The notes beneath the pieces were generated by a model, which was not told where the DNA came from, ran no database searches, and was given only the letters and a program-made list of their open reading frames with translations. Position numbers and translations under genes: made by a program. A stretch of DNA of 64,000 bases from Escherichia phage vB_EcoM_EC001: the sequence record MN445185.1; one strand, given 5' to 3'. Shown here piece after piece: positions 1 to 63,749 of the stretch. The stretch's first letter is position 1, and every line of letters begins with the position of its first letter.

Positions 1-228
1 CTTCATCCATTTTGCAGTGATGGCATTACCTTGCTTTACAGTAAGGTTGTCAGCACCACTTAAACTGTTGTGTTGCTTCTCTACAGGTGTCTCTGTTGCA
101 TCGACAGCTGTAGGATTAATAAAGTTAACTTCGATAGGGATGACTTTAACTCGAGTGGCACCACGAGGTTTATCTTCCGCGACGATACCTATCGAGAAGA
201 TGTGCAACCCTGACTTAGATTTATTCAT
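1..228 (-). CDS. hypothetical protein, 5' part only (gene continues past window start)
   Basis: Minus-strand frame open from ATG at 226-228 to the window edge (76 codons, no stop); GAGGAGG 5 nt upstream. Absent from ORF track because truncated. Overlapping plus ORF 17..370 has no RBS. Confidence 0.45.
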   Translation of the reverse strand, partial: MNKSKSGLHIFSIGIVAEDKPRGATRVKVIPIEVNFINPTAVDATETPVEKQHNSLSGADNLTVKQGNAITAKWMK

Positions 229-408
229 ACCACCCTCCTCTCATACTACACTTTTTTACGTTTCGATCTCATCGTTTGACAATCGAGGAGTGTACGGGGG
301 TAAGGGGGTTTATGTATTGGATGCGAACATAAACGGAGGTATCCGTAGGATACCGACATCCTTTTTGTAGTTGACCTTGACTTTTAACCTAACGAGGAGT
401 GCAGTACC

Positions 409-726
409 ATGTCTTTATTTCAAACCATTAAAAGTGCATTAGAGCGTAATGATGCAGACAGTGCCTTTACTGCGTTACAGAAAGCCAGTAACGGGAAGCT
501 AGATAGCGTCTTTGCTAACAATCAAAGAATGCGCTTTTACAAAGTCGGGGAAGTAGACCAGTTCTACAACGAACTGTTTACAGGGGTAGTGCAAAGCGCG
601 GTATACGCCATGCCGACTGAACAACTAAGTCAGTTTGAAAAAGGGATGCGTTACCAGCGGTTAAGTAACGACTACTCATTACTGAATCTGGCTATCGATG
701 ACTGCGTCGTACTGGTTGTATACTAA
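409..726 (+). CDS. hypothetical protein (105 aa)
   Basis: ORF with GAGGAG 9 nt upstream of ATG; first gene after a divergent intergenic region. Confidence 0.6.
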   Translation: MSLFQTIKSALERNDADSAFTALQKASNGKLDSVFANNQRMRFYKVGEVDQFYNELFTGVVQSAVYAMPTEQLSQFEKGMRYQRLSNDYSLLNLAIDDCVVLVVY

Positions 727-846
727 GTTTTTACAGATAGATGTCATCTTAGTGAGCAATGTGTATAAACCCACAGTCGCTTAAACACCAACTGTTCTTT
801 AGTAACAGTTTTTGGTCACTTTAGTGTACTTTAAAGGAAATACCAA

Positions 847-2085
847 ATGTATAACGAATACGAATTAGTTTACCAGACACCGAAAGAAGCATTCTTTAAT
901 GCAGTAATTACTAACTCAATTGTACTGTTGGGAATGCAGTTCAATATTCGGAGTATGGCTTACAGCGACGTAACGTGGCAGGATTGTGCGTGCCTGCCAC
1001 AAAAGCTCTCAACCGTTGTCGAAAAGCGGCTGCTTGACAAAGGGGAAGTAAAGTGCCGTTTAGGCCACCACGTCTCTGACTTAGCGCCGTGGGTTGAATT
1101 AACCATGACATTCGAAGGGGATTCGCGGGTAGCTTACCTATCGGGTAATCAAAACATCGGACGCGCCATTGCTGAGGGTAACACAATGTGGGTGCACTAC
1201 ATTCTTACTCTGCTGATCGATAAACCGGTGTTCGAGTTAACACCAGACATGCCTACACTAAGCGATAGCAACTGGTGGATTGGCGGAGAGCTGAATACAG
1301 GGTTTAATGAGAAATTACAAAACTTTAATTCAGAGCGACTCGATGTTGATGCGGAAGTGTTGGTGCAGCAGTTCCCCGAATTCACTGCGTACCAAATTAC
1401 TACCGTATGGAATAGAGCGGTAAGCAAGCGCAGATTCTACACGAAAAACGCACCGCGTGAAGCAGCCAAACCTGTGGAAATTGACGAAGACACCAAGGAA
1501 GCACTGCGTGATCTAGTCACCATAGCCAATGATAGCAATATGATGTTCTGGACATCTGATGAAAACGCTAACCATTATTTCGGTGAGATGTTAGACGCCG
1601 ATGTTTGGTCAGTAATGCCGATAACAGAGCCAGGAAACCTTAAAGATTACTATAAGGTCGAAAAGGATGAGGTGGTTAATGAGAAAGTCCTCACTCTTCT
1701 TGCTGTTTTCCGCGAAGTTATCCAGTCAGAAATACTGTTAAGCATCTATAAACGTAAGACCCCGGCCAGTGAAAATGACACGGCGTGGGTATTTGACTGT
1801 CGACCGACAAATACAATATCGCCTGCGTTCTGGATACAGGTGACAGGAAAGCTGCAGCGTGTGAACAGTTATGTTGTTTCTCGCCTGCCAGATTCTGAAA
1901 TGCGCTCCGTTGCCGAACCTGCTTATTTGATGTCGGCGAAGGCGGTACAGGATGCGTGGCGTACCAACGAACTGAAACAATGGCATTACGACGCTATCAT
2001 CAAATGGGGTGTTAACAATGGCTGGAAAGAAGTGACTAAGTACGGCCGTCAACTGTTGTTTGTCGCTGATTTGCGTTTACTGTAA
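847..2085 (+). CDS. hypothetical protein (412 aa)
   Basis: Long ORF, AAAGGA upstream of ATG, followed by an intrinsic terminator; no motif recognised. Confidence 0.7.
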   Translation: MYNEYELVYQTPKEAFFNAVITNSIVLLGMQFNIRSMAYSDVTWQDCACLPQKLSTVVEKRLLDKGEVKCRLGHHVSDLAPWVELTMTFEGDSRVAYLSGNQNIGRAIAEGNTMWVHYILTLLIDKPVFELTPDMPTLSDSNWWIGGELNTGFNEKLQNFNSERLDVDAEVLVQQFPEFTAYQITTVWNRAVSKRRFYTKNAPREAAKPVEIDEDTKEALRDLVTIANDSNMMFWTSDENANHYFGEMLDADVWSVMPITEPGNLKDYYKVEKDEVVNEKVLTLLAVFREVIQSEILLSIYKRKTPASENDTAWVFDCRPTNTISPAFWIQVTGKLQRVNSYVVSRLPDSEMRSVAEPAYLMSAKAVQDAWRTNELKQWHYDAIIKWGVNNGWKEVTKYGRQLLFVADLRLL

Positions 2086-2094
2086 TCTCGTCAT

Positions 2095-2124
2095 CGGGGG
2101 TCTTGTACCCCCTTCTTATTTTTT
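2095..2124 (+). terminator. intrinsic terminator
   Basis: GGGGG-tcttgta-CCCCC then TTCTTATTTTTT, 10 nt after stop of 847..2085. Confidence 0.7.
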
Positions 2125-2145
2125 AACCGTAAAGAGTATTTAACC

Positions 2146-2727
2146 ATGCCACAACCAATTATTGAACAACATGAAATGAACTACGAAGAACTGACCCGCC
2201 GCTATCGCGTGAAAGCCCCACGGGTAGTAGAAGGTTGCGAGAAATACAAAGAAGCAGACTTCGTGGTATTCCAACGCGAAGGTGTTCCGATGATGGTGTT
2301 CGTAAAACACGTCAGCAGCGATAACGACGACCGCCTAGTGATGCTGTATAACTTGATGGCTACCGTACTAGATACCGATATTGGACTGTTACGTCGTTAT
2401 AAATCATCCTACGAACAGAAAGCGAAGGTGGTTGCTTTTGACTTACCACGCACGGTACTAGTAGATGGTTCCCGTCCGGCTATTCTTCGTTTTACGAAAA
2501 GCGAAAGCGACAGTAACCCAGCGCATATCGTTCAGCCACTAACGCTGTCGCAAGATACGTTACAGCAGAACGGCGGGATGGATTGGCTAAACGTCATGTT
2601 ACCGGGCCTAGCTGAAGGTCAGGAACTGCATCTGGTTTGCTACACCCCATCCGTTGAGCACACCTATGCGCGTTACCTTACCGAAGAACACGGTTTCCGT
2701 AACCACCGTGGTATTTACATTGCGTAA
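2146..2727 (+). CDS. hypothetical protein (193 aa)
   Basis: ORF starting 20 nt after a terminator; tightly packed with next gene. Confidence 0.65.
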   Translation: MPQPIIEQHEMNYEELTRRYRVKAPRVVEGCEKYKEADFVVFQREGVPMMVFVKHVSSDNDDRLVMLYNLMATVLDTDIGLLRRYKSSYEQKAKVVAFDLPRTVLVDGSRPAILRFTKSESDSNPAHIVQPLTLSQDTLQQNGGMDWLNVMLPGLAEGQELHLVCYTPSVEHTYARYLTEEHGFRNHRGIYIA

Positions 2728-2736
2728 GGTGAGTGT

Positions 2737-3300
2737 ATGTCCCGTTTACTAGAAATTCGAAACGATATCTGGCAAGAGCAGATCCACAACGATCCAGAGT
2801 GGGAAGGAGTTGAAAGTGATTTACCGGATAACCCCGACCAGCTGTTGGTGTTCCTTTATAGCGATAAAGCCAAACAGATCAAGGGGATATTTGAACGCAA
2901 AACGACAAGCTTGTCGACCTTACTGAGCTGCATTTGCTGTGGCATCAGTGAGCTTGATCCCAATCTATTCACCAACTATCTTGCGCGTAAAGTCCGTACA
3001 CCACTACTAGAAGTTACACTCCCGCCAGATATTCGTATCAGTAAAACTGTACCGACTGTTTTGCGTTTACAGGATGTGTCTGGTAGTAGCGACGATGGGG
3101 AAACAACGATTACTCTTTCCTCGTCAGAGAGTGAACTCGCAACCAAATCGTTTCTTAGCGAAGTCGAGGCCGGATTAAAGCAGGACGTAATCGTCTATAA
3201 TCTCGGCAGTGTGCCCATTGAGCCCATTTTACACTTCTTTGAAAGCCAAACCTGCCATCTTGTAGAAAGCTTAACATACCACTTTAAAGGAGCTTTATGA
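2737..3300 (+). CDS. hypothetical protein (187 aa)
   Basis: ORF with AAGGTGAG SD; 9-nt spacer from upstream gene. Confidence 0.65.
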   Translation: MSRLLEIRNDIWQEQIHNDPEWEGVESDLPDNPDQLLVFLYSDKAKQIKGIFERKTTSLSTLLSCICCGISELDPNLFTNYLARKVRTPLLEVTLPPDIRISKTVPTVLRLQDVSGSSDDGETTITLSSSESELATKSFLSEVEAGLKQDVIVYNLGSVPIEPILHFFESQTCHLVESLTYHFKGAL

Positions 3301-3584
3301 TGAAACTCGAAGGCTACGTTGTTACTGATAAACCTTTTGCTGAAGCCAACCTGTCGCGTTCACAGGTTGTTTATAAAGACATCGATGTGCCTGCCGAAAT
3401 CGTTAAAGCGAATCCCAGCTGGCTAATCAACCACGTTTCTTTGGAAATCACCAATCCGTTTATCAACGATCCAACCGACCCATTTGTCGACATGGGTAAT
3501 TTCCGCGATATTCTTTCCCCGCATCAATACCAGACAGTGGCACAGAAGAAAGGGAAGCTGCTCATCGAAACGTTGAGTGTGTAG
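3297..3584 (+). CDS. hypothetical protein (95 aa)
   Basis: ATGA start/stop overlap with upstream gene; AAAGGAG SD; followed by a strong terminator. Confidence 0.55.
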   Translation: MMKLEGYVVTDKPFAEANLSRSQVVYKDIDVPAEIVKANPSWLINHVSLEITNPFINDPTDPFVDMGNFRDILSPHQYQTVAQKKGKLLIETLSV

Positions 3585-3589
3585 TTTAT

Positions 3590-3630
3590 CTCCAGTAACC
3601 ACGAGGGTTACTGGAGTCCTCTTATTTTTT
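3590..3630 (+). terminator. intrinsic terminator
   Basis: 11-bp stem CTCCAGTAACC/GGTTACTGGAG, loop ACGAG, then TCCTCTTATTTTTT. Confidence 0.8.
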
Positions 3631-3663
3631 ACACTTAACTCAAATTAATTTGAGGTGTGGTAT

Positions 3664-4251
3664 ATGACAGAACGTATTTTACGACTGCAAGAGAACAGGT
3701 TAGAAGACCTGCACGTAATGCGTAGTCGCGGCTTGTTCCCAGTGGGGCTTGATGTAAGTGGGTTAATAACTTCTGCGCAGCACGGGGACAGGGTCATTAC
3801 AATGCATTCGCGTGGGAACGAAGTGGTCTCTGCGATTTTCATCGATAAGGTTATTCCGGACTCGGAAAGTGGTAAGGTAGCGGGACACATCATTTACGAA
3901 TACTTTCGCAGCATTCTATACGAGGAAAAGATAAACGTCAAAACTTTTATGGAGTACGCTAAGCGAAATAACTACATCGATGCGCGACTGATGGTCACGG
4001 AAGGCACCCCAACTATAAACGGTAAAGTCCACCATCGTTTACTTGGGGCGCAGTTGCCGAGACTGGGTGAGTTACCGACGACGATAGAGCTACACCAAAA
4101 AACAGATTGGCGACACAAAATCGAAGTGCTTCACAAGCTTTACGATTTATCGATCGTTCAAATCAAACTGGTGGACTTCACGCCTGCAAATATGCAAATC
4201 GCTAAGCGCGCATTGGGTTTTCGTATTCTTAACACAACGTTCACATTGTAA
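3664..4251 (+). CDS. hypothetical protein (195 aa)
   Basis: Track ORF 3655..4251 begins at GTG; start moved to ATG 3664 with GAGGTG SD. Confidence 0.65.
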   Translation: MTERILRLQENRLEDLHVMRSRGLFPVGLDVSGLITSAQHGDRVITMHSRGNEVVSAIFIDKVIPDSESGKVAGHIIYEYFRSILYEEKINVKTFMEYAKRNNYIDARLMVTEGTPTINGKVHHRLLGAQLPRLGELPTTIELHQKTDWRHKIEVLHKLYDLSIVQIKLVDFTPANMQIAKRALGFRILNTTFTL

Positions 4252-4282
4252 AATATCTCAGATATATATTACTTAGGTGAGA
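4252..4282 (+). promoter_or_regulatory. conserved promoter-like element, TATATTAC class
   Basis: …CTCAGATATATATTACTTAGGTGAG… right after stop of 3664..4251; near-identical copy at 62806; core matches phiKZ early-promoter element as I recall it. Confidence 0.45.
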
Positions 4283-4302
4283 GTTAAGAGATTAACTCAA
4301 CT

Positions 4303-4331
4303 GGCTACCCTCGGGTAGCCTATTCTTTTTT
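4303..4331 (+). terminator. hairpin + T-run between promoter-like motif and gene 4357 (terminator or attenuator)
   Basis: GGCTACC-ctcg-GGTAGCC then TATTCTTTTTT. Confidence 0.6.
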
Positions 4332-4356
4332 AAACCAATCGACTGTAGAGCAAAAC

Positions 4357-4758
4357 ATGACTATCAAGAAGTTCTTACAAACAGTAGTAGTTCTGGCCGC
4401 ATGTGGTATCGCAGCAACTTATGCTTTCGATAAGCCAGACGTGACTGAATACGTATCAGCGGATTCCGATTACGGTATTGCACCGAATGAAAAACCGGAA
4501 CTGATGCGTGAGGTCGAACAGTTACAAATCTACAAACTGACGGATGGTAAGAACTGCACAGGGCTGGTTATCGCTGATAAGAAACTGAAAATGTATCAGC
4601 GGTTAATCGACATATCGTGCGATCAACCAAAAGTCACCTCGGTCAGTGTATCGCCGTTGGAATTGCCAGATCTGGTTGCTGTGAGTTTTTATCACAACGA
4701 TGTGCTCGTTGGTCGCATCACCCTCAATCGTGGAGATATCAAAAATGAAATGCAATAA
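4357..4758 (+). CDS. putative lipoprotein (133 aa)
   Basis: N-terminal signal peptide with lipobox-like VLAAC-G. Confidence 0.6.
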   Translation: MTIKKFLQTVVVLAACGIAATYAFDKPDVTEYVSADSDYGIAPNEKPELMREVEQLQIYKLTDGKNCTGLVIADKKLKMYQRLIDISCDQPKVTSVSVSPLELPDLVAVSFYHNDVLVGRITLNRGDIKNEMQ

Positions 4759-5236
4759 CGTTAATCGCCACTTGGCCAAAGTGGTGCTTTTTACTGTGCT
4801 GTTGATGGCACTTGTTGTTGGGCTACGGATTTCTAAGGCACACGCTGACGAATTCAGCGGGTTCCAGGGCAGTATTAACGGCAGCATTCCAGCATATACC
4901 CGCACCATCAATCTTAATGATAAGCCGTTCTGGTGCAATGCGCGTAAGCTGCTTAAGAAACAGTGTCGTGTAGTTGACATATCCTTCAACGGTCGTGTCG
5001 CTATCGTACACCGTCCGGGCGATAAAGATTGCCCAGGTGGTTGGTGGGGTGCAGTCGACCGTCACAACGGTGACGCGTTATGGCTTATCCCTAATCGTGA
5101 TGAACTATCAGTGGAGAAAATTTGCAGCAAAGATTTCAGGGCCGGTTTTGTACAGCGACCGGATACCAAAACTCTGGCCTCCATCGCTATGTACTACGGT
5201 ATGGAAACCATCAAAACAATCGACTATTCAGAATAA
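4745..5236 (+). CDS. putative secreted protein (163 aa)
   Basis: Start moved from track ORF 4700 to ATG 4745 (GGAGA SD); predicted signal peptide ending ...SKAHA; several Cys; overlaps upstream gene by 14 nt. Confidence 0.6.
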   Translation: MKCNNVNRHLAKVVLFTVLLMALVVGLRISKAHADEFSGFQGSINGSIPAYTRTINLNDKPFWCNARKLLKKQCRVVDISFNGRVAIVHRPGDKDCPGGWWGAVDRHNGDALWLIPNRDELSVEKICSKDFRAGFVQRPDTKTLASIAMYYGMETIKTIDYSE

Positions 5237-6095: not shown

Positions 6096-6168
6096 GTGAG
6101 ATGACGACCCATCTCACTTTGGCCCTGCGGTGATTTCCCCAACACTTAGCCGCAGGGTCCTTTTTAAT
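6096..6168 (+). terminator. tandem hairpins, second followed by T-run
   Basis: GTGAGAT…ATCTCAC, then CCCTGCGG-(19-nt loop)-CCGCAGGG followed by TCCTTTTT, which runs into the TTAATCGAC motif. Confidence 0.55.
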
Positions 6169-6181
6169 CGACTATTACTCG
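6164..6181 (+). promoter_or_regulatory. conserved 5'-leader motif TTAATCGAC(C/T)ATTA
   Basis: TTAATCGACTATTACTCG ending ~19 nt before ATG 6196. Confidence 0.35.
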
Positions 6182-7388: not shown

Positions 7389-7420
7389 GGAACCCTTCGG
7401 GGTTCCATTTCTTCTTTTTT
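7389..7420 (+). terminator. intrinsic terminator
   Basis: GGAACCC-ttcg-GGGTTCC then ATTTCTTCTTTTTT. Confidence 0.75.
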
Positions 7421-7440
7421 ACGCATGACCTTTTGGATAT

Positions 7441-7454
7441 GAACGACTAATACT
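7441..7454 (+). promoter_or_regulatory. conserved 5'-leader motif (variant GAACGACTAATACT)
   Basis: Same spacing (~19 nt) to ATG 7474 as other copies. Confidence 0.3.
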
Positions 7455-11627: not shown

Positions 11628-11653
11628 CCTCACTATGAGTGGGGTATTTTTTA
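11628..11653 (+). terminator. probable intrinsic terminator
   Basis: CCTCACT-atg-AGTGGGG (one G-U) then TATTTTTTA; a second weaker hairpin spans the upstream stop codon. Confidence 0.45.
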
Positions 11654-11670
11654 CGCGAGGAGTGCTATTT

Positions 11671-11880
11671 ATGTTTCACCGTCCTGGGTTTTCAGCTTTA
11701 AACACCGATGTCTGTTGGGCTGAGTACGAACGGGCGAAGGAGTTCTTACCCGTAAATCCAAAACACATCAACGTGGGTACTATCGGGCGTGTTGCGTTTG
11801 ATGATACTCCGCTGAGTACGTGTATTAAAGCAGCGCTTGGTACGCTGCCGGCGTCTATAGTTATTGAGGAATTAAAATGA
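11671..11880 (+). CDS. hypothetical protein (69 aa)
   Basis: Start moved to ATG 11671 with GAGGAG SD 10 nt upstream. Confidence 0.5.
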   Translation: MFHRPGFSALNTDVCWAEYERAKEFLPVNPKHINVGTIGRVAFDDTPLSTCIKAALGTLPASIVIEELK

Positions 11881-13085: not shown

Positions 13086-13536
13086 CGCGCCTGAGCGCTT
13101 CAAGGTCGTTACAGTTAACTGTGTTGGTGCAATGGGAAGGGGCATTGCTTTGGCGTGCCGAGAACGCTTCCCATCGCTTTATAATGACTATCGCCAGAAA
13201 TGTCGTAAAGAGCAAATCGTTATCGGTGAGGTCTATTGTTATCCTGAGGAAGGGGTAATACTCCTTCCTACTAAAACCCATTTTCGCTATAAATCGCAGA
13301 TTTACTATGTCACGTCCGGCATTGATGCGCTGGCGCGACTAGGGGAAGACTTAGAAGGAGGGATTGCGATACCGCCCCTAGGGATGGCTAACGGTTGGTT
13401 ACGTTACCATGAGCGATTGGAAATCTTTATACACTTACAGAAACGACTACAGCACACGGAGCAGACTTATCGATTCTATTTACCGGACACATTGCTAAGG
13501 GAAGCAGAGAAAATCATCCCAAAAAGTTTCAAATAG
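13036..13536 (+). CDS. macro-domain protein, TARG1/DarG-like (166 aa)
   Basis: Motifs in order: HDLF…VNCVGAMGRGIALACRERFP, QIYYVTSG, GIAIPPLGMANGW, resembling the TARG1/OARD1/DarG macro subfamily as I recall it. Confidence 0.6.
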   Translation: MSLELIDEAVISHDLFNAPERFKVVTVNCVGAMGRGIALACRERFPSLYNDYRQKCRKEQIVIGEVYCYPEEGVILLPTKTHFRYKSQIYYVTSGIDALARLGEDLEGGIAIPPLGMANGWLRYHERLEIFIHLQKRLQHTEQTYRFYLPDTLLREAEKIIPKSFK

Positions 13537-13551
13537 ATATTATCATCAGGG
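13520..13551 (+). promoter_or_regulatory. conserved promoter-like element (ATATTATC variant)
   Basis: CAAAAAGTTTCAAATAGATATTATCATCAGGG; shares A-tract + AGATAgATATTAyC pattern. Confidence 0.4.
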
Positions 13552-13635
13552 CACATTACAAAGGAGCACAATGCCGTCCGCGCCGTCTTCCCGGATTGGG
13601 AACGGAAAAGTATAAATCCGTTTGGAGATACATCC

Positions 13636-15266: not shown

Positions 15267-15326
15267 TTTTTTACAGCAGTAACTAATCATCTGAAAATAC
15301 CATTGACTTTTATAAGGACTATTAAC

Positions 15327-19559: not shown

Positions 19560-19597
19560 CCCTCTTACCTTCGGGTAAGAGGGGATTTCCTTTTTTA
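19560..19597 (+). terminator. intrinsic terminator
   Basis: CCCTCTTACC-ttcg-GGTAAGAGGG then GATTTCCTTTTTTAC. Confidence 0.8.
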
Positions 19598-19642
19598 CGT
19601 TAATAGTCAATAGTGTGATATATAATCTCGTGGAGAGTTGAA

Positions 19643-21877: not shown

Positions 21878-22618
21878 ATGTTGCGAGTCGTGAGTGAATC
21901 GCTCACGCTCCACACACAAAGTCTGATTAACTGTGTGGAGCAATACGGATGGATGTCATGGATGGCAACGAACCGTGAGTTCGGTGCTGCGCCCATGGAA
22001 GATTACGACGTGTTGTACAAGTGGGGATTTGAAGCGGCTTGTGATGTTGTGGCAGAGCTGGTTACTGAAACAATTGCGCGTTACAATGCAAGATGTGATG
22101 AACCGATGCCTAAACAAGTCCCGCCGCAAATACCTCCGCTACCGACAATCGATCGTGAGCAGTGTCGAATCTGGACAATGGAAGAGTTGTACGACGAACA
22201 CGTTAGAATGCTGAAACCGAACGAGCTAATAACCGGTGCGTTGAACTGGTTCTTACATCGTTTCTGGACAGAGTTGGTCGATGTGGCGGGTGACGAAGAT
22301 AATTGTTCTCAGGTTATTTGGTACGATCGAGCGATGTTTCATCGCAGTCTTAAAGATCGCAGTCTCTGCAACCTGTATATTGTTGACCCGTGTGAAGACA
22401 TTGTAAGGGTGGCAGAAGGTAACTCTTATTCGGACTTGGTGATGCCTGTGGTAGAAAAACCGATGGGTATTTTCCTGCAGGGAGACGCTTGGGTTTTAAC
22501 GGATGATATCTCGGGCTACCTGCTGGACCCGGATGACATTCACTCGGACGAACCTGACACCATCGAGTATTTTCACTTTACAGAACAGGCAGCACGCTTC
22601 TTGCATCTCTTAAAGTAA
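21878..22618 (+). CDS. hypothetical protein (246 aa)
   Basis: Start moved to ATG 21878 (GAGGTG SD, 1 nt after upstream stop). Confidence 0.6.
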   Translation: MLRVVSESLTLHTQSLINCVEQYGWMSWMATNREFGAAPMEDYDVLYKWGFEAACDVVAELVTETIARYNARCDEPMPKQVPPQIPPLPTIDREQCRIWTMEELYDEHVRMLKPNELITGALNWFLHRFWTELVDVAGDEDNCSQVIWYDRAMFHRSLKDRSLCNLYIVDPCEDIVRVAEGNSYSDLVMPVVEKPMGIFLQGDAWVLTDDISGYLLDPDDIHSDEPDTIEYFHFTEQAARFLHLLK

Positions 22619-22643
22619 TCTGAGATAGATATTATCTACAGGG
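22616..22643 (+). promoter_or_regulatory. conserved promoter-like element (ATATTATC variant)
   Basis: TAATCTGAGATAGATATTATCTACAGGG, ~30 nt upstream of SD of gene 22672. Confidence 0.4.
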
Positions 22644-22671
22644 ACGTAACCTTAAGGAGAATTTATTCACG

Positions 22672-25302: not shown

Positions 25303-25337
25303 ACGGACACTCTTCGGGGTGTCCGTAGTTTTATTTT
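25303..25337 (+). terminator. intrinsic terminator
   Basis: ACGGACAC-(tcttcggg)-GTGTCCGT then AGTTTTATTTT, running into the TTAATCGACCATTA motif. Confidence 0.7.
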
Positions 25338-25349
25338 AATCGACCATTA
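25336..25349 (+). promoter_or_regulatory. conserved 5'-leader motif TTAATCGACCATTA
   Basis: Directly after terminator T-run; ends 18 nt before ATG 25367. Confidence 0.35.
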
Positions 25350-31133: not shown

Positions 31134-31147
31134 GGGATAACCTCATC

Positions 31148-31183
31148 TCAAAAAGAACTCAGACAGATATTATCTATCCGAGA
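31148..31183 (+). promoter_or_regulatory. conserved promoter-like element (ATATTATC variant)
   Basis: TCAAAAAGAACTCAGACAGATATTATCTATCCGAG in a divergent intergenic region; shares AAAAAGAACT with 62806 copy. Confidence 0.4.
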
Positions 31184-31209
31184 CAACATCTCATAATAGG
31201 ATAACACCT

Positions 31210-62141: not shown

Positions 62142-62194
62142 TTTTTTACATGACGTTGGTTTCATGTGTTGGGGAACAAAATAAGGACAAGAAG

Positions 62195-62796: not shown

Positions 62797-62805
62797 AATT
62801 GCATT

Positions 62806-62839
62806 CAAAAAGAACTGAGATATATATTACTTAGGTGAG
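62806..62839 (+). promoter_or_regulatory. conserved promoter-like element, TATATTAC class
   Basis: CAAAAAGAACTGAGATATATATTACTTAGGTGAG, downstream of a terminator and ~50 nt upstream of gene 62890. Confidence 0.45.
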
Positions 62840-62856
62840 CGTTACACGTTAACGCT

Positions 62857-62870
62857 TTAATCGACCATTA
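62857..62870 (+). promoter_or_regulatory. conserved 5'-leader motif TTAATCGACCATTA
   Basis: Ends 19-20 nt before ATG 62890; ~18 nt downstream of TATATTAC element. Confidence 0.35.
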
Positions 62871-63735: not shown

Positions 63736-63749
63736 TTAATCGACCATTA
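63736..63749 (+). promoter_or_regulatory. conserved 5'-leader motif TTAATCGACCATTA
   Basis: Starts 4 nt after upstream stop; ends 18 nt before ATG 63767. Confidence 0.35.

Follow-up and report, generated by a model that had tools for sequence, protein, structure and literature searches.

A conserved divergent spacer beside the baseplate-hub gene of Escherichia phage vB_EcoM_EC001: candidate late-type and middle-type promoters and a candidate structured RNA

Main finding

The 180 bp divergent spacer at positions 229-408 of a stretch of Escherichia phage vB_EcoM_EC001 (sequence record MN445185.1) was analyzed for signals of transcription; the whole stretch of 64,000 nucleotides is called the window, and positions are those of the window unless another genome is named. 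The spacer lies between the baseplate-hub gene on the minus strand and a plus-strand gene of unknown function (409-726). Judged from its sequence it is not a signal-poor gap, and we lean towards reading it as a conserved two-way control region with a late-type start for the baseplate-hub gene, a middle-type promoter on the opposite strand and a structured RNA on the plus-strand transcript.

In the proposed mechanism the spacer would be read both ways by the multisubunit RNA polymerases of the phage itself and not by the sigma-70 polymerase of the host. On the minus strand, transcription of the baseplate-hub gene would start at the G of a TATG (G242), and its mRNA would have 14 nt of leader that carry a strong Shine-Dalgarno (SD) sequence. 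On the plus strand, 36 bp away, the element TTTTTTACG (252-260), followed after 14 nt by TTTG, would start a transcript at about G278, and this transcript would open with a structured RNA of about 90 nt composed of G5-N3-G5, a variable hairpin, a covarying hairpin between CGGAG and CGACNUCC, and a U-rich tail. The structured RNA would either continue as the 131-nt leader of gene 409-726 or end at the hairpin and U-run as a small RNA. The start sites, their timing, the acting polymerase, the functional strand of the structured block and any termination are here predictions. With 36 bp between the predicted starts, the upstream region of each promoter contains the other, and one may speculate that they compete for occupancy; a phiKZ late promoter into which the middle element had been inserted was three times less active in vitro (PMC4666361). 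The promoter signals would be new members of the phiKZ late and middle classes, with a T-rich upstream half and a relaxed initiator.

Distribution and conservation of the spacer

Over positions 1-4000 the window has 96-98% identity to Salmonella phage SPN3US, SEGD1, Escherichia phage Lh1B and about 30 other Seoulvirus genomes, and by this identity it is an SPN3US-like jumbo phage (Seoulvirus). The whole SPN3US genome was used for genome-wide motif counts, position x of the window corresponding to SPN3US position x + 161184 (window 278 = 161462; window 242 = 161426). The order of baseplate gene, spacer, first plus-strand gene and early-type promoter is kept in Seoulvirus, Erskinevirus, Machinavirus, Derbicusvirus and Wellingtonvirus. 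Within the spacer the invariant or nearly invariant islands are CCTCCTC (reverse complement of the baseplate SD), CATA, TTTTTTACG and GGGGG-N3-GGGGG, and a further island is made of CGGAG, a hairpin, CGAC-N-TCC and then a pyrimidine-rich tail. What was observed directly is that the motifs are present, recur and are conserved, and that the hairpin covaries.

The three-element pattern of the structured block (about 278-366) was searched in 2.9 million viral contigs and gave one match per genome in 10 contigs, all of this clade; a relaxed pattern in a metagenome scan gave four close relatives and five chance matches. The block always adjoins the baseplate gene, also in loci with a spacer of about 275 bp and a different plus-strand gene. 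It was absent from phiKZ and from Vibrio phage pVa-21, and a single-protein search for distant loci returned SPN3US itself only.

Predicted late-type start on the minus strand

The features on the minus strand are as follows.
241-248, minus strand: late-type initiator TAGTATGA (TATG at 245-242, predicted start G242), a match to the phiKZ late type
229-242, minus strand: GAGAGGAGGGUGGU, the predicted leader (14 nt, SD included) of the baseplate mRNA

The minus-strand TATG (CATA on the plus strand) was invariant in 15 lineages, drawn from Seoulvirus, Erskinevirus, Machinavirus, Derbicusvirus and Wellingtonvirus plus CR5-like and uncultured phages, while the flanking bases varied; its contexts among the lineages are TAGTATGA, TAATATGA, TAGTATGT, TACTATGT, CAGTATGA and TTGTATGA. 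In all lineages it stands 14-22 nt before the baseplate start codon (14 nt in the window). SPN3US has 5 copies of TAGTATGA, all intergenic, with 4 of the 5 at 13-38 nt before genes, and the genes preceded include the virion genes gp170 and gp256 (tail sheath). TATG was the top enriched 4-mer at -45 to -15 of the SPN3US start codons (26 of 107 regions, 6.1 expected), TATGA was met there 13 times against 1.3 expected, and the oriented upstream regions of this genome held 64 TATG where about 26 were expected.

Late promoters of phiKZ carry TATG with G as +1; the motif is needed for transcription by the non-virion RNA polymerase, with all four bases needed in vitro, and is bound under the lobe of the beta-like subunit (PMC4666361, PMC12809450). 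The TATG found at 245-242, shortly before the baseplate gene and with its G as the predicted start, has this form. Taken together, the invariance of TATG, its genome-wide enrichment and the phiKZ precedent lead us to infer a late-type promoter at 242-245 that starts at G242. As in phiKZ late promoters (e.g. P119L), the TATG stands directly before a late structural gene with no further shared upstream consensus, and TATG is enriched before genes genome-wide. The differences are the leader of just 14 nt, the preference of the SPN3US clade for the extended form TA(G/A)TATGA, and a function that is here a predicted one.

Candidate middle-type promoter on the plus strand

The bipartite motif T5-6AC(G/A)-N14-TNTG is represented by the following features.
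252-260, plus strand: upstream element TTTTTTACG (-26 to -18 relative to G278), which includes the T-tract of the spacer
275-278, plus strand: TTTG initiator (T-N-T-G), predicted start G278, 14 nt after TTTTTTACG and overlapping TTGACA at 276-281
7416-7441, 11648-11673, 15268-15293, 19592-19617 and 62143-62168, plus strand: other middle-type copies with N14
3627-3652, plus strand: copy with N15

TTTTTTACG was invariant in 13 aligned lineages. The gap from element to initiator is N14 in three Seoulvirus lineages, both Erskinevirus lineages, Caitlin and Wellington, and N15 in ChrisDB, SNUABM8 and the loci L024 and L025. In SPN3US there are 39 copies of TTTTTACN, 15 intergenic and 24 genic, and T-N-T-G exactly 14 nt past AC(G/A) was found with 10 of the 15 intergenic copies and with 1 of the 24 genic ones (background 0.0146 per position). 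The ten bipartite copies are all on the plus strand; nine are upstream of gp76, gp101, gp104, gp174, gp186, gp192, gp201, gp206 and gp248, none of which is annotated as a virion protein, and the tenth (at SPN3US 299) has no annotated gene nearby. Their initiators are TATG (4), TGTG (4), TTTG (1) and TCTG (1). The window holds 6 matches of the bipartite motif against 0.17 expected, a number reached by 0 of 100 shuffles, and the motif was also found in loci of other genera.

Middle promoters of phiKZ have the element AAanTTACc centred near -24 (Ceyssens 2014, Yakunina 2015, PMC4666361), and in the phiKZ gp78-gp79 spacer, which was read here, P78M is AAAATTACC-N14-TATG, a spacing identical to that of TTTTTTACG-N14-TTTG. 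TTTTTTACG is likewise an A/T-rich element with TTAC about 22-24 nt upstream of the predicted start, and the fixed arrangement of TTAC, one more base, N14 and T-N-T-G with G as the start is that of P78M. The motif also recurs before non-structural genes, as phiKZ middle promoters do, and like P78M it is in a divergent spacer adjoining a structural gene. Unlike in phiKZ, the base after TTAC is G or A and not C, and the start here is predicted. The gp78-gp79 spacer of phiKZ (L039 19011-19180) was itself seen to carry P78M on one strand and a candidate TATG about 33 nt before the structural gp79 on the other, which is the same divergent middle/late layout as here.

Candidate structured RNA block downstream of the predicted start G278

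The elements of the block and its tail are listed below.
296-308, plus strand: G-block GGGGGTAAGGGGG (G5-N3-G5), conserved in all lineages and part of the search pattern
308-334, plus strand: variable hairpin P2, from folding: GTTTATGT, an 11-nt loop, ACATAAAC
334-361, plus strand: hairpin P3, with CGGAG, inner stem 338-344/348-354, loop GTA, a 4-nt bulge GACA, and UCC closing the outer GGA
362-366, plus strand: U-run directly after P3, read from the sequence
371-382, plus strand: TTGACC TTGACT, a semi-conserved GTTGACC element

Seoulvirus and Machinavirus both have a hairpin P2, of unrelated sequence, ahead of P3 and behind the G-block, which Erskinevirus and the Derbicus type lack. The flanks of P3 are invariant (CGGAG on the 5' side, CGACNTCC on the 3' side), and its inner stem has 2-8 pairs and differs by genus, as GGTATCC, GGTACTC, GGTACCC, GGTGAC, GGAGGAAT and others; the loops are mostly of the type G..A and the bulge is GAC-N. 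In a structure-guided alignment 7 of the 8 inner pairs were changed on both sides, and paired cells made up 93.8% against 72.8% in shuffles. None of 500 shuffles did as well in pairing or in covariation, and sliding the partner lowered the paired share to 23-55%; this alignment was made by hand and fitted to the hairpin, therefore the counts lean toward structure. Each sequence also folds individually into the hairpin. Pairs kept through compensatory changes, as in a structured RNA, are thus a property of P3. With RNAalifold on a MAFFT alignment the consensus was weak (-3.5 kcal/mol), as the variable hairpins are misaligned there.

The plus strand is suggested by a U.G pair in the P2 of SPN3US and by G.U pairs in Machinavirus stems (these would be C.A on the opposite strand), by the G..A-type loops, by the U-rich 3' tail and by the plus-strand promoter at the 5' end of the block. 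Of 16 sequences examined, 11 have a U-rich tail after P3 (at least 7 U in 12 nt), and the U-run at 362-366 may be a partial terminator or attenuator. A long-range helix between the G-block and the U/C-rich tail had -10 to -13 kcal/mol, against about -6 with shuffled tails, in Machinavirus, L025, L026 and Wellington; in the window itself it was no better than shuffles.

The hairpin and T-run, placed by the original prediction (an earlier note made from the letters of this DNA) at about 345-368, were roughly right in position, with GGTATCC at 338-344, loop GTA and GGATACC at 348-354, followed by GACATCC and then TTTTT at 362-366; as a terminator they were not supported as such. The hairpin has a GC-containing stem, and an immediate UUUUU follows in the window if the bulged outer stem GGA/UCC is closed, which is the form of an intrinsic terminator. 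The plus-strand consensus scan made no call, however, and the stem has a 4-nt bulge; a terminator does not need the invariant flanks and here would have no upstream plus-strand gene to terminate, and the U-run is missing in the closest relatives.

It is possible, and we hold this as a tentative proposal, that the block at about 278-366 forms a gene of its own, encoding a conserved, structured small RNA of about 90-110 nt, whose middle-type promoter stands back-to-back with the late promoter of the baseplate-hub gene and overlaps it; this reading covers Seoulvirus, Erskinevirus, Machinavirus, Derbicusvirus, Wellingtonvirus and the CR5-like jumbo phages. In two Machinavirus spacers (L013 1774-1799 and L014 1777-1802) a second middle-type promoter, GTTGACC..TTTTTACA-N14-TATG, was seen between P3 and the next plus-strand gene, and positions 370-389 of the window (GTTGACCTTGACTTTTAACC) are a degenerate relic of it. 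The Derbicus type and L024 have an early-type promoter after P3. Such a second promoter after P3, middle-type or early-type, suggests that the block is a self-contained unit. In phiKZ and 201phi2-1, small RNAs derived from 5' untranslated regions (5'UTRs) arise by early termination after the start site, one of them beside a tail gene (PMC11512511). They share with the present locus a start site (here a predicted one), a short conserved structured RNA, a nearby terminator-like hairpin, the adjoining tail or baseplate gene and conservation across genera. The published locus is upstream of phiKZ gp182 and the present one beside the homolog of phiKZ gp164, in the opposite orientation to the structural gene; there is no sequence similarity, and the RNA is here a predicted one. 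Homology to the published tail-gene small RNA was rejected on the difference of the genes (gp182 against the gp164 homolog) and on the lack of the block in phiKZ.

Other identities of the block were tried and set aside. Rfam 15 covariance models gave only two matches, both with E of at least 0.68 and far below the gathering score, and no entry fitted as a known RNA family. A K-turn reading of the bulged hairpin was rejected by inspection, the G.A pairs not being at the required places. A small protein was rejected: the 37-aa minus-strand open reading frame at 246-359 varies from 0 to 37 aa among relatives and loses its ATG wherever the N of CGACNTCC is a base other than A. A replication origin was rejected too, the cumulative GC skew simply tracking the orientation of the genes.

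Early-type promoters and the class of the plus-strand genes

The original prediction had found neither of two phage motifs, TATATTAC and TTAATCGAC, in the spacer and had proposed that genes 409-3584 may belong to a different temporal class. Both motifs are indeed absent: the best match to TATATTAC has 2 mismatches, and TTAATCGAC has none within 2 mismatches. TATATTAC is part of the extended early-type consensus aaaaNNtttc-AGATA(G/T)ATATTA(T/C)CTaaGTGAG, and it belongs to the early (virion RNA polymerase) promoters of phiKZ-like phages. A matrix of 38 nt was built from 18 SPN3US early sites; on SPN3US it gave 23 clear sites, all on the plus strand with a score of at least 28, the next best being 13.6. 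The early-type features of the window are the following.
721-758, plus strand: early-type promoter variant TTTTTACAGATAGATGTCATCTTAGTGAGC, matrix score 28.4, core AGATAGATGTCATCT at 735-749, between gp174 and gp175
721-758, 4246-4283, 13517-13554, 22609-22646, 31147-31184 and 62804-62841: the six early-type matches of the window, matrix scores 28-49

In the region 181-460 the best matrix score for an early-type promoter was -18.0, and the consensus aaaaNNtttcAGATA(G/T)ATATTA(T/C)CTaaGTGAG was not found. With a best score of -18 the spacer is therefore without an early-type promoter, and a hidden one inside it was rejected. The exact TATATTAC is present in just 2 of the 6 window sites; it is too narrow because the commoner variant of the core is AGATAGATATTATC. 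The verdict that the spacer lacks a known motif thus arose partly from motif definitions that were too narrow. The site at 721-758 is kept at the equivalent place in SPAsTU, pEa_SNUABM_29, Asesino and Stratton (scores 25-37), therefore genes 847-3584 are served by a promoter which the 8-mer TATATTAC had missed, and by this sequence match they are early-type.

The proposed temporal class consequently held for one part and failed for the other. Gene 409-726 is probably non-early, since the spacer is without an early-type promoter and has the middle-type bipartite motif; for genes 847-3584 the proposal is contradicted because the early-type promoter at 721-758 precedes gene 847.

TTAATCGAC is part of AATCGAC(C/T)ATTA, which ends 19-21 nt before start codons.
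6164-6172, 25336-25344, 62857-62865 and 63736-63744: copies of AATCGAC(C/T)ATTA in the window
57146, 65455, 94280, 114030, 167592, 223318 and 224197 of SPN3US: copies of AATCGAC(C/T)ATTA in that genome

This motif is usually followed by cTTAAGGAGTATT and sits just after hairpins, in leaders of early-type promoters as well as behind terminators; candidate roles are a promoter with a very short leader and a signal for processing or translation. It was further observed that in SPN3US (72643 to 72684 for gp76, 94193 to 94239 for gp101) and in L003-L007 an early-type promoter follows 20-45 nt after a middle-type one before the same gene; such pairs suggest that some genes are expressed in two phases.

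Weighing of the readings

Several observations weigh against a two-way control region with a structured plus-strand RNA. For the late-type start, the 14-nt baseplate leader is shorter than the 21-40 nt usual for TATG sites. For the middle-type promoter, the Derbicus-type lineages have TATAG at the expected initiator position; the 5' half of the element is T-rich where that of phiKZ is A-rich, so that only TTAC and the spacing are shared; the initiator is TTTG, while the phiKZ non-virion polymerase needs all four TATG bases in vitro; and 5 of the 10 SPN3US copies have a T-run that doubles as the U-tail of a terminator with a GC-rich hairpin, therefore part of the recurrence could reflect terminators. 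For the RNA, the U-run after P3 is absent in SPAsTU and SNUABM29 (two other Seoulvirus lineages) and in Erskinevirus; the folding z-score of 278-367 is -1.9 on the plus strand and at least as good, -2.5, on the opposite strand; P2 and P3 energies are similar on both strands in most lineages, which makes the strand evidence weak; and the identity of the block, 60-78% against 66-75% for adjacent coding sequence, is not higher, therefore the block is constrained and not ultra-conserved. In the literature searched, no published start-site, RNA-seq or timing data were found for SPN3US or its relatives.

The alternative that stands up best, itself unlikely, places the function of the block on the minus strand, where it would form a long 5' leader of the baseplate-hub gene or control that gene from upstream. 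With a start to the right of 361, a transcript would contain CCUCCG and CCCCCUUACCCCC, which could mask the baseplate SD and start codon by pairing with them, and only the short mRNA initiated at TATG would be translated. The block does stay beside the baseplate gene in every lineage while the plus-strand gene beyond it varies; the RNA 367-222 folds with its C-block on the SD/AUG region (z -2.5, 2 of 200 shuffles as good); and the 5'UTR-derived small RNA of phiKZ/201phi2-1 upstream of a tail gene has the orientation of that gene. This pairing hangs, however, on the unusually G-rich SD of the SPN3US group and fails on inspection in Erskinevirus, Machinavirus and Derbicus-type sequences. To the right of the block the minus strand has neither a conserved TATG nor another conserved promoter motif, the G.U pairs and U-rich tail suit the plus strand only, and the conserved promoter at the 5' end of the block is a plus-strand one.

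That T5-6AC(G/A)-N14-TNTG is a termination or RNA-processing signal and not a promoter, gene 409-726 being started elsewhere, e.g. at the plus-strand TATG at 311-314, is improbable. The T-runs that directly follow GC-rich terminator hairpins in half of the SPN3US copies fit this explanation, as does the enrichment of T-runs followed by AC, which is only about 2.4-fold in upstream regions; as a motif the T-run is convincing just with its N14-TNTG partner. The TATG at 311-314 is present in the window, in L025 and in Wellington, whereas in most lineages it becomes TGTG, TATT or TAAT. A terminator tail does not account for the exact N14 spacing to T-N-T-G, which equals that of the mapped phiKZ middle promoter P78M, and the copy in the spacer has no preceding hairpin.

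We consider it still less probable that the block is a site in the DNA, for binding of a phage transcription factor at the baseplate promoter or for a cruciform, with no RNA function. The invariant short words CGGAG, CGACNTCC and G5-N3-G5 could be protein contacts, and phiKZ late promoters depend on flanking determinants that are unidentified. The stems of P3 and P2 nevertheless change their sequence freely with complementarity kept and with a length of 2 to 8 pairs, which is typical of selection on a folded single strand and not of a duplex binding site, and the other TAGTATGA promoters of the genome are without such an upstream block.

The picture of a weak host-type promoter and a small terminator in an otherwise signal-free spacer, with genes 409-3584 as one non-early class, is very improbable. 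Direct reading of the sequence bore out the coordinates of the spacer, the T-tract (TTTTTT at 252-257) and the TTGACA at 276-281, and the hairpin with its T-run does occur; what is above chance among these is the T-tract, as part of the invariant TTTTTTACG, and the hairpin, whose pairing is kept via compensatory changes. As a host-type signal TTGACA is a chance match. It is a -35 hexamer alone, without a -10 partner at 16-18 nt spacing, the sigma-70 consensus scan calls no site in the spacer, and the 8 sigma-70-like sites in 1-5000 equal the shuffle expectation of 7.8. At its position the relatives have TTGCAG, TTGATA, TTGCTA and CTGCTA, and the hexamer differs in every relative outside the SPN3US species group, on which grounds a sigma-70 promoter was rejected. 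The phiKZ-related group, including SPN3US-like phages, encodes virion and non-virion multisubunit RNA polymerases, and those of phiKZ transcribe its genome without the host enzyme (PMC7598289, PMC4666361); by analogy, transcription independent of the host polymerase, established for phiKZ, would also be expected in the present phage. The class assignment of this picture is contradicted for genes 847-3584 by the early-type promoter described above.

Genes around the spacer

The genes on the two sides of the spacer are as follows.
1..228, minus strand: 5' part of the baseplate hub or "puncturing device" gene, SPN3US gp173, which continues beyond the window
395-400 and 409-726, plus strand: SD GAGGAG, then ATG at 409 and gene gp174 (105 aa), read from the sequence

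The product of gp173 is annotated as a baseplate assembly/puncturing protein; it matches PHROG 3216 "baseplate assembly protein" (E 1.8e-122) and is the homolog of phiKZ gp164 (tblastn to PHIKZ164: 31% identity, E 3e-22). Its start codon is at 228-226, with the strong SD in the reverse complement of 229-242, GAGAGGAGGGTGGT. On the other side, gp174 belongs to PHROG 18565 (function unknown), has no Pfam match, and has homologs confined to Seoulvirus and Erskinevirus; gp175 is at 847-2085 on the plus strand, and gp174, gp175 and the later plus-strand genes are all of unknown function. Of the 18 divergent spacers in this genome, whose non-coding fraction is only 6.4%, the present one (180 bp) ranks among the longest.

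A neighbouring spacer beyond the edge of the window, which separates gp172 (DUF1471/BhsA-like) from the baseplate gene (SPN3US 160273-160479; L001 5089-5295), is likewise unusually long at 207 bp and in part conserved across genera. At 3297-3584 the homolog of gp178 has 95 aa against 175 aa in SPN3US, since about 243 bp that are present in SPN3US and SEGD1 are deleted here; the deletion is apparently common to Escherichia phage Lh1B, a phage that aligns to window 1-4000 in one piece.

Significance of the findings

Middle and late promoters of jumbo phages that encode their RNA polymerases are described in reviews as not predictable from sequence (PMC7598289). In the SPN3US clade, two sequence rules retrieve candidate non-early promoters: TATG at -15 to -45 of start codons, and T5-6AC(G/A)-N14-TNTG, the second having the geometry of a mapped phiKZ middle promoter. 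If confirmed, these rules would let temporal classes be assigned in a Salmonella phage that serves as a model and is open to genetic work, and likewise in its Erwinia relatives.

Tail assembly might be controlled after transcription or through promoter interference, and the conserved folded RNA next to the baseplate-hub gene is a concrete candidate for such a role; on this subject jumbo-phage data are almost nil. If the block is indeed a small-RNA gene, the RNA itself or the competition between the promoters would time or tune the production of the baseplate.

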